This document shows, piece by piece, positions 3,696-7,132 of a stretch of DNA of 34,028 bases (its first letter is position 1; every line of letters begins with the position of its first letter). Under the pieces are notes generated by a model that did no database searches, was not told the DNA's origin, and saw nothing but the letters and a program-made list of their open reading frames with translations. This stretch comes from an uncultured Ruminococcus sp. Its GTDB lineage: Bacteria > Bacillota > Clostridia > Oscillospirales > Acutalibacteraceae. Made by a program: the position numbers and the translations under genes. The stretch spans positions 1 through 34,028 of the forward strand of contig CACYDD010000087.1 in the NCBI GenBank assembly GCA_902773065.1. The letters are read 5' to 3'.

Positions 3696-4793
3696 ATGAA
3701 AAAAAGACTATTGATTTCAATACTGTGTTTTTTGCTGATGGCAGGGTTGCCGCTTTTGTCGGCAGGCGGTCATATGGACGGAGAAGCTTTCACAGAGATG
3801 TTTGGAGCAGAAGAAACGGAAAGTGCAGAAACATCTGTGCAGAGCCAGACAACTAAAAAAGAAGAAAGTAAAGAAAATTCAAAGAGCGAAAGTAAGACAG
3901 AAAAATCACAGAATAGCGAAAATGATACCAAGCAAAAATCAGCTACCGATACATTTATCATTCTTGATACGGCAAGCGGAAAAACGGTTGAAGTGGGGGA
4001 CAGGGATTTTTGTATGGGTGCGCTTGCCTATGAAATGCCGCCTTCCTTTGAAAAAGAAGCCCTCAAAGCTCAGACGGTGGCACTTTATACCCATTTTTGC
4101 CGTATCAGGGAAAAACAGCGGAAAGAACCCGAAAAAGACCTGAAAGGGGCAGATTTTTCGGCAGACCTGAAAAAGGGAGAAATTTACCTCACAGATGAGG
4201 TTTTAAAAGAAAAGTGGGGGAGTCTGTATGATGAGAGCATAAAAAAAGTCCAAACAGCCGTTGATGAGGTATTCGGAGAAGTTCTGACAAGCGGCGGCGA
4301 GCTGATCGATGCCTGTTATCATGCGATTTCAAGCGGAACGACGGAAAATGCAGAGGATATTTTTGGATTTAAGTGTGATTATCTGAAAGCTGTCGCCAGC
4401 CCATGGGATACTGCCGCACCCGATTACATGACAAGTGCAGACTTTACCACAGCTGAATTCAAAGAAAAACTCAGCAGTTTCGGTATCAGCTTTTCGGGCA
4501 AAGCGGAGGATTATATCAAAAATATTTCCGCAACACCGTCAGGCTCTGTCAAAACGCTGAAAATATGTGGAAAAGAGCTGACAGGTTCGCAAGTGCGGCA
4601 GACGTTCGGCTTGCGGAGTGCTGCTTTTACCGTAAAATATGCAGGCGGAAAATTCACTTTTACTGTCAAAGGCTATGGTCATGGTGTCGGGCTCAGTCAG
4701 TACGGCGCACAGGGTATGGCTCAGCAAGGCTCAGACTACAAAGAAATCCTACAACACTACTACAGAGGGGTTCAATTAGGAATTAGGAGTTAG
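3696..4793 (+). CDS. spoIID: stage II sporulation protein D (SpoIID/LytB-domain lytic transglycosylase)
   Basis: The C-terminal motif GYGHGVGLSQYGAQGMAQQG is typical of SpoIID. An N-terminal signal/anchor follows the ATG at 3696 (MKKRLLISILCFLL). The track start at 3684 is a TTG directly abutting the AGG, so 3696 is preferred. Confidence 0.85.
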   Translation: MKKRLLISILCFLLMAGLPLLSAGGHMDGEAFTEMFGAEETESAETSVQSQTTKKEESKENSKSESKTEKSQNSENDTKQKSATDTFIILDTASGKTVEVGDRDFCMGALAYEMPPSFEKEALKAQTVALYTHFCRIREKQRKEPEKDLKGADFSADLKKGEIYLTDEVLKEKWGSLYDESIKKVQTAVDEVFGEVLTSGGELIDACYHAISSGTTENAEDIFGFKCDYLKAVASPWDTAAPDYMTSADFTTAEFKEKLSSFGISFSGKAEDYIKNISATPSGSVKTLKICGKELTGSQVRQTFGLRSAAFTVKYAGGKFTFTVKGYGHGVGLSQYGAQGMAQQGSDYKEILQHYYRGVQLGIRS

Positions 4794-4803
4794 GAATGAG
4801 GAA
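4776..4803 (+). repeat. heptanucleotide tandem array TTAGGAA TTAGGAG TTAGGAA TGAGGAA (overlaps the spoIID stop codon)
   Basis: There are four exact-period 7-nt units. The third unit supplies the spoIID TAG (4791..4793). TAGs at 4777 and 4784 fall in the other two frames. Confidence 0.85.
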
Positions 4804-4913
4804 TGGTTTTGTGAAAAAATCGATGCTTTACACAATGCAAACGGGCAATGAAGTTGATTGGAAAATTTTGATATGTTTGAAAAAATGAAAATAAATTTTG
4901 TGTAAAATAACAG

Positions 4914-4942
4914 TTTACTTTTCTAATAGAATTGCATATAAT
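4914..4942 (+). promoter_or_regulatory. sigma-A type promoter (TTTACT-N17-TATAAT) of the AT-rich islet
   Basis: The -35 TTTACT is at 4914..4919, the spacer is 17 nt, and the -10 TATAAT is at 4937..4942. It is the only good promoter between spoIID and the 186-aa gene. Confidence 0.45.
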
Positions 4943-4946
4943 ATAG

Positions 4947-5111
4947 ATACAAGATATGTTCTTGTATTCACCGATGAAGCAACCGCCTTGTTATAGTGGT
5001 AGGGTGGAGGTGCCTGAAGGGTTTATGGTGAACCTGTCTATAACTATGACTGAAGTCATAAAACCATTAATTTTTAAGTAATAAGGCACTTCGAGTTAGT
5101 CGGAGTGCCTT
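4947..5111 (+). promoter_or_regulatory. structured ~165-nt leader or small RNA ending in a terminator-like hairpin immediately before the RBS of the 186-aa gene
   Basis: Hairpins are atacaaga/tcttgtat (4947..4967), gttatag/ctataac (about 4990..5043), tatgac/gtcata (5045..5060), and a 12-bp stem (one G-U) pairing 5083..5094 with 5100..5111, followed by TATTCGT. The GAGGA RBS at 5119 leaves no room for a separate promoter. Confidence 0.35.
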
Positions 5112-5126
5112 TATTCGTGAGGAAAT

Positions 5127-5687
5127 ATGAAAACAATACAAGATTGTGCAAAATTATATGATACATTAATTGGAAACGAATATACACTTATTCTTGAGAA
5201 CGATATGCGAATTGTTTTTAATTTTGATAAAGGTAATTTCTTTCATTTAATAGGTTTACATAAATTGTCTGATGTCAATGAATTTTATATAGGTAACAGG
5301 AGAAAGTCAAAAAATCGGATATACAAAGAATTACTAAGCGGTATCATAGACGATAATAGATTAAGGTACAAAAAGGGTTATGATAAAATTATTACCAGGG
5401 TGGAAAATTTTGAGTATATCACAGATTTATTATGTTTTGATAAAAGTAATAAGTTGATTATAGATTTTGATATAAATCTTATTAACAGATTTGATTCTTT
5501 GCTAAGTGGTACGAAATATATTCTATACAAACAATTGAACAATGTCTATATTCATTTAACATTTGGACAAGGAAGAAAAATATATCCTGAAAGTTTTTTT
5601 GTGCATAACGGAAAAGATTATATTTCCGAACAGACATTAATTGAAATAAAAGATATTCAGATAAAACAACATATTGTGAAAATATAA
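5127..5687 (+). CDS. hypothetical protein, putative toxin; resembles PBECR-type (Barnase/EndoU/ColicinE5-D/RelE-like) nuclease domains (assignment from memory)
   Basis: This is a 186-aa ORF, markedly more AT-rich than its neighbours. The N-terminal block YDTLIGNEYTLILEN...FNFDKGNFFHLIGLHKL matches my recollection of the F-x-HL-x-GL-x-KL core of PBECR4-like proteins. It is followed by a tiny antitoxin-like ORF. Confidence 0.55.
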   Translation: MKTIQDCAKLYDTLIGNEYTLILENDMRIVFNFDKGNFFHLIGLHKLSDVNEFYIGNRRKSKNRIYKELLSGIIDDNRLRYKKGYDKIITRVENFEYITDLLCFDKSNKLIIDFDINLINRFDSLLSGTKYILYKQLNNVYIHLTFGQGRKIYPESFFVHNGKDYISEQTLIEIKDIQIKQHIVKI

Positions 5688-5722
5688 ATTTTGTATCATC
5701 ATTAAATACGGAGGGTATCACA

Positions 5723-5872
5723 ATGGAAAGAACATCAAACAGACCTCTTGCAATGAATGAGCTTACAAAAGAACAGCTTGATACAGAAATCGCAAAGGGG
5801 TTGGCTGATATAGAAAATGGCAGAGTCTATTCAGCAGAAGAAGTTCAGGAAGAATTACACGACTTATACTAA
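5723..5872 (+). CDS. 49-aa antitoxin-like small protein (not in the ORF track because it is under 60 aa)
   Basis: The ATG at 5723 has GGAGGG 7 nt upstream (5710..5715). The translation is MERTSNRPLAMNELTKEQLDTEIAKGLADIENGRVYSAEEVQEELHDLY. The G-x-x-D-I-x-x-G-R-V-Y-S-A-E-E-V segment resembles toxin-neutralising segments of ParD/RelB-type antitoxins (from memory). Confidence 0.5.
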   Translation: MERTSNRPLAMNELTKEQLDTEIAKGLADIENGRVYSAEEVQEELHDLY

Positions 5873-5919
5873 TATCGTATAAATAATAGACAAACGCAAA
5901 AATATCTGATATAATAAAA

Positions 5920-6420
5920 ATGGTGATGAACATGAAATATCAGATAACGGAAAAGCAAAAAGAAGAAATAGAACAGACACGCAAGAAAAACAAAAATAAG
6001 CAAATAGAAAGACGCTTGAAAGTATTATCGCTGAAGGCAGAAGGAGCCAGCTACAAAGAAATAATGGCTGCAACCGGATATAGTAAAGCAAATGTAGCAA
6101 AGATAGTTAAACTATATTTTGAAAAAGGCATAGAAAAAATTATAACAATTAAGTATGGAGGCAACCATCGTAATCTTAGTTACGAAGAAGAGGAACAGCT
6201 TCTGCAATTGTTTGTGAAGAAAGCTGAACAAGGACAAATCGTTGAAACCAAAGAAATAAAAGAAAAGTACGAACAAGCAGTAGGACATCCAATTGGAAGC
6301 GGACACATATACTATATTCTAAAAAGGCACGGTTGGCGAAAAATAATGCCGAGAAGCAGACATCCGAAAAAAGCAACACCGGAGGCGATTGAAGCCTCAA
6401 AAAAATTAAACGATTTGTAA
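5920..6420 (+). CDS. IS630-family transposase, N-terminal HTH part (orfA)
   Basis: The 166-aa ORF has helix-turn-helix-like segments (SYKEIMAATGYSKANVAKIVKLY) and a winged-helix part (HIYYILKRHGWRK). It stops at 6418..6420, just after an A7 run. Confidence 0.85.
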   Translation: MVMNMKYQITEKQKEEIEQTRKKNKNKQIERRLKVLSLKAEGASYKEIMAATGYSKANVAKIVKLYFEKGIEKIITIKYGGNHRNLSYEEEEQLLQLFVKKAEQGQIVETKEIKEKYEQAVGHPIGSGHIYYILKRHGWRKIMPRSRHPKKATPEAIEASKKLNDL

Positions 6421-6461
6421 AGGAAATACAAGAAATCAACAAAGATTCCACCGTTCGTTTA

Positions 6462-6965
6462 ATGTTTCAGGATGAGGCAGGATTCGGGCGTATCAACAAG
6501 CCTAAATACTGTTGGTGCAAAAAGGGATATCGTCCCTCTGTCCCATGTCATCATATAAGGGAATACAGATATGTTTATGGTGCAGTAGAACCACTCAGCG
6601 GAGAAAACTGCTTTCTTGTTATGCCTTATTGCAATACGGACTGTATGAATGTATTTCTTGCTCATCTTTCCAAATCCTATAAAGAGGATCAAATTGTGTT
6701 AGTATGCGATGGAGCTGCCTGGCATAAATCTAAAGGTTTAATTATTCCTGATAACATTCATATTATTTTTATCCCACCTTATACACCGGAAATGAATCCA
6801 ATTGAACAAATTTGGAAAGAAATACGAAAGATGGGTTTCAGAAATGAAGTATTCCAAACTCTCCAAAAGGTTATTGATCGCCTGTGTCAATCTATTCGTG
6901 CTTTATCTCATGATACTATTAAATCCATTACTGCAAGAGATTGGATTGTGTCTATTTTTAATTAG
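6462..6965 (+). CDS. IS630-family transposase, DDE catalytic part (orfB; frame is open from 6393)
   Basis: The DDE_3 hallmarks are present: FQDEAGFG, LVCDGAAWHKS and PPYTPEMNPIEQIWKEIR. This reading frame is open upstream to 6393, so it overlaps orfA by 28 nt in the -1 frame. Confidence 0.85.
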   Translation: MFQDEAGFGRINKPKYCWCKKGYRPSVPCHHIREYRYVYGAVEPLSGENCFLVMPYCNTDCMNVFLAHLSKSYKEDQIVLVCDGAAWHKSKGLIIPDNIHIIFIPPYTPEMNPIEQIWKEIRKMGFRNEVFQTLQKVIDRLCQSIRALSHDTIKSITARDWIVSIFN

Positions 6966-7006
6966 ATATTAGTATTAATAAAATAATATATTTTAAAAAC
7001 AAAATT

Positions 7007-7059
7007 CCCGACCCTCGCCGAATTGTATCGGTCAGGGTCGGGGATGTTTTTATTGTTTT
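7007..7059. terminator. rho-independent terminator (likely the original terminator of the toxin/antitoxin-like operon, now displaced by the IS)
   Basis: A 9-bp GC-rich stem pairs cccgaccct (7007..7015) with agggtcggg (7034..7042), and an inner ccga/tcgg pairing adds to it. A T-rich run follows at 7047..7059. An A-rich tract on the left side would allow bidirectional function. Confidence 0.6.
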
Positions 7060-7132
7060 GACTTGAATCAAAAAACAGACAGATATTCATCAAGCTGCTG
7101 TTCTTCCAATTCTGCTATAAAGTCAGTAAATA

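Follow-up and report, generated by a model that had tools for sequence, protein, structure and literature searches.

A drum RNA and a predicted PBECR4 ribonuclease gene in a cassette that may resemble type III toxin–antitoxin systems, beside a putative relB remnant

Two neighboring open reading frames (ORFs) in an uncultured Ruminococcus sp. raise the question of whether they encode a toxin and its antitoxin. They lie on contig CACYDD010000087.1 of assembly GCA_902773065.1, a 34,028-nucleotide (nt) stretch of DNA that was analyzed over its whole length and is called the window here. The original prediction described a toxin-first pair, in which a 186-amino-acid (aa) protein resembling PBECR4-type predicted ribonucleases (RNases) is followed by a tiny acidic antitoxin of 49 aa. 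Both ORFs are present as described, at positions 5127..5687 (186 aa) and 5723..5872 (49 aa) of the plus strand, and they are separated by 35 nt. Our results do not support the view that the two are a cognate pair, because they show no conserved co-occurrence, a finding that the original prediction itself had named as grounds for giving it up. The conserved partner of the PBECR4 gene is a drum RNA with a terminator, located directly upstream. We judge it somewhat probable that this RNA and the predicted RNase gene form a cassette laid out like a type III toxin–antitoxin (TA) system, and that the 49-aa ORF stands outside it as the remnant of a relB gene struck by an IS630-family insertion sequence (IS). 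Drum has been a “sophisticated” orphan bacterial RNA since 2017 and PBECR4 is a predicted RNase, and both are tied here in a fixed layout.

The drum RNA and the PBECR4 gene

A structured leader had been noted in front of the 186-aa ORF, and it is borne out by a promoter-like site at 4914-4942, a fold z of -3.4, and a terminator hairpin (5085-5109) with TTTATT behind it. The cassette is conserved and consists of a single promoter, a 5′ hairpin, a drum RNA with a pseudoknot, an intrinsic terminator, and a ribosome binding site (RBS) with its ATG. Its parts in the window are as follows.

4914-4942, plus strand: sigma-70-type promoter-like site, TTTACT, 17-nt spacer, TATAAT (10 of 12 matches)
4949-4965, plus strand: 5′ hairpin, ACAAGAUAUGUUCUUGU, at the predicted transcript start (minimum-free-energy fold)
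4969-5075, plus strand: divergent drum RNA (Rfam RF02958) with P1, P2, and pseudoknot (Rfam and our own model R1)
5085-5115, plus strand: intrinsic terminator with 5′ arm GGCACUUCGA, loop GUUAG, 3′ arm UCGGAGUGCC, and UUUAUU (hairpin 5085-5109, -16.1 kcal/mol)
5127-5687, plus strand: 186-aa stand-alone PBECR4 gene, predicted BECR-fold RNase (ORF and PF18813 profile; RBS GAGGAAA at 5119-5125)

The association was examined in 85 PBECR4 loci of many Clostridia, of which a scan of a genome collection supplied 80, the others being the window and four metagenome contigs. Cultured strains among the carriers include [Clostridium] clostridioforme AGR2157 (L064) and Chakrabartyella piscis BP5G (L048). 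The loci were searched with the covariance model R1, which was built from drum sequences of other PBECR4 loci. A drum or drum-like RNA is present on the same strand 30-180 nt upstream of PBECR4 in 68 of the 85 loci, and a terminator hairpin with a U-tract lies between this RNA and the start codon in 61 of the 68. When 40 loci were scanned with the Rfam model, 14 carried a drum RNA at the level of the gathering score upstream of PBECR4. The drum RNAs of other PBECR4 loci score 45-93 bits, are always located on the strand of the gene, and end ∼40-170 nt before its start codon.

A class sample of 300 genomes yields a similar picture from both directions. This sample contains 11 drum RNAs at the gathering level, of which seven are located directly upstream of an ORF matching PF18813, the Pfam PBECR4 profile. 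Conversely, there are 21 PF18813 ORFs in the sample (the PBECR4 of the window is missing from these matches), and a drum-like RNA is found upstream of 12 of them once sensitive searches are added. Eight drum-less PF18813 loci were scanned for other known RNA families, and none was found. The pairing of drum with PBECR4 is frequent and not obligatory, since both drum-less PF18813 ORFs and solitary drum RNAs exist.

Much about drum was already known from Weinberg et al. 2017 (PMC5737381), whose passages on this RNA describe the motif, its 3′ terminator, and a “compelling association” between the RNA and a protein-coding gene close by. In those passages, drum is judged to be neither a riboswitch nor a ribozyme. 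As in the published motif, the RNAs studied here have P1 and P2 stems and a pseudoknot formed by the P2 loop. The conserved GGAG, GGGUU, and AACC blocks are likewise present, a Rho-independent terminator stands at the 3′ end, and a single protein family is associated with the RNA. The RNAs studied here differ in position, since the protein gene described by Weinberg et al. can lie to either side of drum and in either orientation, whereas in our samples the RNA is almost always directly upstream on the same strand. In addition, the present work assigns the associated protein to Pfam PBECR4, a further difference from that description. A literature search found no paper that names drum RNA and PBECR4 together, with the 2017 drum supplement lying outside that search.

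The drum RNA of the window belongs to a divergent subfamily, with compensatory changes in each counted helix. The Rfam RF02958 model matches positions 4969-5071 with 33 bits (E = 4e-4), and R1 matches the window drum with 54 bits (E = 2e-12). This copy keeps P1 (CACC with GGUG), P2, and the pseudoknot (GUUAUAG with CUAUAAC) by compensatory bases of its own, and further complementary segments seen by eye, which were left uncounted, are P3 (AUGGU with ACCAU) and P4 (AUGAC with GUCAU). Over 71 distinct sequences, the share of paired cells is 93.3%, compared to 63% in shuffles (0 of 500 reach the observed value) and ≤42% in slid controls. Double-sided changes occur in 21 of 22 drum pairs, and the P2-loop pseudoknot, although absent from the model, is 89.5% paired in the same sequences. 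This covariation supports the predicted drum fold, pseudoknot included.

The remainder of the leader is also conserved. Across four homologous leaders that were aligned, neither the TATAAT box nor the sequence around it varies. The 5′ hairpin is kept in three relatives (L007, L001, and L009), and an A-U pair in its stem is changed to G-C. Overall, the 330 nt upstream of PBECR4 can be aligned as DNA with relatives that share only 44-80% protein identity.

Judged by its profile match, the 186-aa gene is a stand-alone PBECR4 gene encoding a predicted RNase. The FFHLIGLHKL block that had suggested this assignment pointed to the right family, as PF18813 matches residues 3-168 of the protein, scanned without its last 10 residues, at 63 bits (E = 6e-17; gathering score 27). 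The profile is matched by 23 of 24 aligned PBECR4 relatives (best E-value 5e-23), and five relatives scanned one by one score 57-78 bits, with 65.9 bits for an 80%-identical relative and 57.5 bits for a 69%-identical one. The block, which reads FxHLxGL in the family, contains H40, the sole invariant histidine in the 24-sequence alignment. Other residues invariant in this alignment are R91, K109, D115, Y131, E155, Y165, and Q169. Most, not all, of the sequences have Ser or Thr at S167 of the Y-I-S-x-Q block, and T145 is likewise mostly conserved.

An AlphaFold2 (AF2) model of the protein (predicted local distance difference test 90.5, predicted template modeling [TM] score 0.87) consists of helices and then a five-stranded sheet. 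The modeled strands (109-112, 129-137, 140-148, 152-161, and 170-181) would be compatible with a BECR fold. H40 is placed within helix 37-42 of the model, which agrees with the histidine in an N-terminal helix that Iyer et al. 2017 (PMC5512222) described for PBECR domains, known solely from that computational work. The protein also resembles the PBECR4 of these authors in its profile score above the cut-off, in the order of helices and sheet in the model, and in its solo form in mobile or accessory contexts. In contrast to their account, the gene is chromosomal and its product is a stand-alone protein of 186 aa, not part of a polyvalent phage protein, and no RNA partner was described there for PBECR domains.

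A HMMER search over 1.84 billion representatives gave only 206 PBECR4 clusters with E ≤ 0.001, mostly of stand-alone proteins of ∼180 aa. A plasmid collection contained one relative, from Enterococcus, with IS elements on its flanks, and none was found in a phage collection. Foldseek searches of BFVD with the AF2 model returned one unnamed viral protein (E = 7e-7) and weak matches to polyvalent proteins, and a profile search of the PDB by sequence gave no match.

The source genome carries three of these cassettes, namely that of the window and those on contigs C51 and C419. The C419 cassette (L124 1341-2775, minus strand) has a canonical drum RNA (53.3 bits with the Rfam model) and then a 443-aa ORF with an N-terminal PBECR4 domain (32.6 bits) and a low-complexity tail rich in K, S, and Q over its C-terminal 200 residues. 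On C51 (L115 1271-1977), a second drum-like RNA precedes a PBECR4 paralog whose frame ends early, at 158 aa, with several stops across the C-terminal part of the family. Decay of the protein gene is common, because internal stops occur in four of the 21 class-sample PF18813 ORFs that pass the family cut-off. The closest relative of the window locus (L007 4096-4270) has a second promoter and a drum-like copy directly downstream of its PBECR4 gene, with no matching terminator or gene after this copy.

How the cassette could work

The PBECR4 start codon at 5127 stands 11 nt after the U-tract. Because no promoter-like site exists between the terminator and the RBS, PBECR4 would be made by read-through only. 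Drum RNA would be produced in excess over PBECR4 protein. Pairing of the terminator 5′ arm with the GGAG/P1 3′-strand region of drum would gate this read-through, and the drum RNA would probably bind and restrain the predicted RNase, by analogy with type III systems. The outcome would be a type III-like pair of RNA antitoxin and toxin, or a module for abortive infection, in which one copy of a structured RNA takes the place of tandem repeats.

The gating step is suggested by a complementarity that is new here. Drum positions 5006-5014 (GGAGGUGCC) offer an alternative pairing partner for the 5′ arm of the terminator, and this segment includes the conserved GGAG and the P1 3′ strand. In the window, this alternative duplex has a predicted energy of -14.9 kcal/mol, compared to -16.1 kcal/mol for the terminator hairpin. 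The GGAG/P1 3′-strand segment is the best drum partner of the arm in 30 of 57 non-redundant loci. Cognate arms reach -7.55 kcal/mol and permuted arms -6.79 kcal/mol, with only three of 2000 permutations matching the cognate value (19 of 2000 without near-duplicates), and control regions of drum pair with the arm less well (-5.3 and -4.3 kcal/mol). Because the terminator 5′ arm is complementary to the GGAG/P1 3′-strand segment, these data suggest that folding of the drum RNA could decide termination and act as a switch.

We tentatively propose that drum might serve the predicted BECR-fold RNase in two roles: as a transcription-attenuating leader with an antiterminator/terminator switch and as an antitoxin. 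If this proposal is true, then dual-role drum RNAs would represent a widespread new class of type III-like TA or abortive-infection modules in Clostridia, and the orphan RNA of 2017 would gain a function.

The layout invites comparison with the type III TA systems (ToxIN, CptIN, TenpIN, and AbiQ/antiQ). Like these, the cassette has one promoter, a non-coding RNA that is pseudoknotted, an intrinsic terminator, and a predicted endoRNase gene reached by read-through. In contrast, drum is present as a single copy of ∼107 nt rather than as a tandem repeat array, and the protein is a predicted BECR-fold PBECR4 that is not ToxN/Kid-like.

Several observations weigh against the type III-like reading of the cassette. 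Tandem repeats make up the known type III antitoxins, and positions 4805-5900 contain none. The antiterminator signal is strong in the clade of the window and weak or modest elsewhere, and the window drum scores below the Rfam gathering score of 43 bits. In the class sample, ∼40% of PF18813 ORFs have no detectable drum, and for four of the 11 gathering-level drum RNAs, no PBECR4 is present in the next 2 kb downstream or elsewhere in the genome. The nuclease-toxin fold expected from the original prediction was sought with Foldseek in the PDB, and nothing significant was returned (best E = 0.066, TM 0.18). In this respect, the model also differs from the PBECR4 of Iyer et al. 2017 (PMC5512222), in whose work RNase activity and toxicity are predictions only. 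Finally, the 49-aa ORF that we place outside the cassette has a start codon, a good Shine–Dalgarno (SD) sequence, and an intact frame in 20 contigs, and it may still be expressed.

Some of the same evidence would fit a drum RNA that is purely a cis-acting sensor, either a riboswitch or a leader bound by a protein or a transfer RNA, which sets PBECR4 expression and has no antitoxin role. In favor of such a sensor are the location of drum directly upstream on the same strand in 68 of 85 loci, with a terminator between an aptamer-like RNA and the RBS, and the complementarity of the terminator 5′ arm described above for 30 of 57 loci, with its nearly balanced energies in the window. Moreover, conserved unpaired nucleotides and a pseudoknot are typical for ligand-binding RNAs. 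However, drum is an improbable riboswitch according to the drum passages of Weinberg et al. (PMC5737381), who also described the associated gene as lying to either side and pointing either way. For a metabolite riboswitch, a link to only one protein family would be unusual. Lone drum copies occur without a PBECR4 gene (the second copy of L007 and the four of 11 in the class sample), and the antiterminator signal fades beyond the clade of the window. We regard a sensor without an antitoxin role as rather unlikely.

A further explanation, which we find quite improbable, is that drum is not an inhibitor of PBECR4 and serves as its substrate, cofactor, or guide, either in a ribonucleoprotein or as an RNA processed into a signal. 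The tight RNA–protein association (68 of 85 loci and the class sample) applies equally to this idea. In addition, Iyer et al. (PMC5512222) proposed RNA-binding roles for inactive PBECR domains, and Weinberg et al. (PMC5737381), where they discuss drum, suggested “a biochemically challenging task” for this RNA. However, no spacer-like variable region stands out, and a stoichiometry limited by the terminator, with more RNA than protein, would be a better fit for an inhibitor.

The 49-aa ORF and the RelB/DinJ family

Most of what the original prediction said about the 49-aa ORF in isolation was accurate. Its RBS, GGAGGG at 5710-5715, is strong and lies 7 nt ahead of its ATG, and the product is acidic, with 12 D/E and 5 K/R by sequence count. 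The G-x-x-D-I-x-x-G-R-V-Y-S-A-E-E-V segment likened to RelB/ParD antitoxins matches positions 49-82 of 83 of NF050811 (RelB_ParD_antitoxin), where the ORF scores 28.7 bits against a cut-off of 60. The DNA-binding domain is missing as stated, with family residues ∼7-55 absent in the alignment.

5710-5872, plus strand: SD sequence GGAGGG and 49-aa ORF, RelB/DinJ-family antitoxin gene with the ribbon-helix-helix domain deleted (NF050811, family alignment)

Searches with the 49-aa ORF revealed, besides identical copies from the same strain that all have PBECR4, the 49-aa ORF, and IS630 arranged alike, only one match, an 80-aa protein (P0029) followed by a ParE_toxin ORF (39.9 bits) with a 4-nt overlap. 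The P0029 family comprises >1,200 proteins, typically of 101 aa, that are annotated as RelB/DinJ antitoxins and have ParE as their operon partner. In the alignment, MERTSN of the 49-aa ORF (MARTSN in the family, residues 1-6) is joined directly to RPLAMNELTKEQLD...GRVYSAEEV...LY (family residues ∼56-101). This C-terminal segment aligns without gaps to 101-aa RelB/DinJ members with 52-61% identity, and the first 18 nt of the ORF match a gene start in another locus (L008) at 15 of 18 nt. From this alignment, the 49-aa ORF is best described as a RelB/DinJ antitoxin gene that has lost its whole ribbon-helix-helix domain by an in-frame deletion, and it retains a native start, SD sequence, and toxin-binding tail.

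We also considered the ORF as a 5′-truncated gene, given tblastn homology that extends 27 nt (nine codons) upstream of its ATG. This candidate was rejected because the first six codons match the family start and the upstream stretch has only ∼43% DNA identity. Under either alignment (internal deletion or collinear tblastn), the DNA-binding domain is gone.

The comparison with RelB/DinJ–ParE operons (PF04221 with PF05016; antitoxin families PF04221, TIGR02384, and NF050811 were compared) thus shows likeness at both ends of the protein, that is, in the first six residues and in the whole C-terminal toxin-binding segment. In contrast to these operons, the 49-aa ORF lacks codons ∼7-55 with the ribbon-helix-helix, an unrelated gene ends 35 nt before it, and an IS630 element adjoins it. 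No ParE or other toxin gene is found downstream of the ORF, where the stop codon leads into IS630, with a terminator beyond the element.

Similar fragments were observed elsewhere. Contig C339 of the source genome (L145 837-956, 1072-1706) has a complete operon of relB/dinJ (102 aa) and parE (109 aa). Ahead of this operon lies a fragment without a start codon, in which the C-terminal 40 residues of relB are repeated. Domain-less relB tails recur in the source genome. At another PBECR4 locus (L093 3153-3452, minus strand), a RelB/DinJ-like ORF without the N-terminal residues of the family lies ∼100 nt past PBECR4 in convergent orientation. The sites where drum–PBECR4 cassettes insert may be hot spots for relB remnants as well.

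It is unlikely, in our view, that the 49-aa protein is a functional orphan antitoxin, a decoy without DNA binding that neutralizes a ParE-type toxin in trans, independently of PBECR4. The proposed targets would be the ParE encoded on C339 or ParE on incoming plasmids, the latter as an anti-addiction role. Such a function would be consistent with the intact frame, start codon, and SD sequence, with the 52-61% identity of the C-terminal region to full-length members, with 44% identity to the complete RelB of C339 that ParE follows, and with a coding sequence unchanged by the IS630 insertion. However, the arrangement is seen in one strain only, the 35-nt gap holds no promoter for the ORF, and the other relB C-terminal fragments (startless on C339, without N-terminal residues in L093) seem to be dead or truncated.

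The comparison of PBECR4 loci also fits the reading in which the ORF is a relB remnant outside the cassette. A tblastn search with the 49-aa ORF and P0029 found a homolog downstream on the same strand in 0 of ∼84 independent PBECR4 loci, and the sole notable match was the convergent ORF of L093. Clustering of all downstream ORFs in the 85 loci showed no conserved partner. The PBECR4 paralog on C51 has no 49-aa-like ORF and is followed by a convergent kinase gene, and the homology that links the window to its closest PBECR4 loci does not extend past the PBECR4 stop codon. The cognate toxin of the 49-aa family is ParE, which the full-length relatives overlap by 4 nt.

A type II pair of a PBECR4 toxin and an acidic antitoxin without a DNA-binding domain is thus very improbable: It would draw on the adjacency of two same-strand ORFs with a good SD sequence and a common downstream terminator before IS630 arrived, on the toxin-binding half of a RelB/ParD antitoxin, and on an arrangement kept in 20 contigs that is the same arrangement in essentially one strain, and it is opposed by the missing co-occurrence, by ParE as the partner of the family, by the end of homology at the PBECR4 stop codon, and by relB remnants that recur, as judged from the startless fragment in the source genome and the L093 ORF. 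For annotation, the case is a caution that a neat “toxin plus tiny acidic antitoxin” pair can arise by chance from neighboring islet remnants. In one clade only, four loci (L065, L066, L070, and L072) share a conserved ORF of 55-60 aa (…FIISSFGNPNTTKTADDLILKM…) located ∼90 nt past PBECR4.

The accessory islet and the IS630 element

Positions ∼4800-7060, between spoIID and a convergent operon, form an accessory islet, because the cassette, the relB remnant, and the IS630 element all lie in this AT-rich segment. Its guanine–cytosine content is 25-31%, compared to 40-46% in the flanks. When congeneric genomes were searched for an empty site, unrelated genes were found after spoIID, which makes that comparison uninformative. 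The remaining features of the islet are listed below.

5866-6975, plus strand: IS630-family IS with inverted repeats at 5866-5892 and 6949-6975 (transpos_IS630 and DDE_3 matches)
5920-6420 and 6462-6965, plus strand: split IS630 transposase, two ORFs of 166 and 167 aa (ORFs)
6995-7054, no strand assigned: bidirectional terminator-like hairpin with 27-nt arms, the islet end before IS630 (repeat search, minus-strand terminator)

The limits of the element are supported by a 90%-identical copy in a congeneric genome that spans exactly 5866-6977. IS630 inserted at a TA within the last codon and stop of the 49-aa ORF, and the product was left unchanged. A pre-insertion end reading ...HDLIK was dropped in favor of a symmetric reconstruction with TA duplication (...HDLY) after the ends of the element were reread. 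The split of the transposase could be explained by a programmed frameshift or by an indel. At the other end of the islet, a heptamer microsatellite (AATTAGG, 4.4 copies, 4774-4804) begins at the spoIID stop codon, and short matches to this repeat are scattered on many contigs of the source genome and of congeneric genomes.

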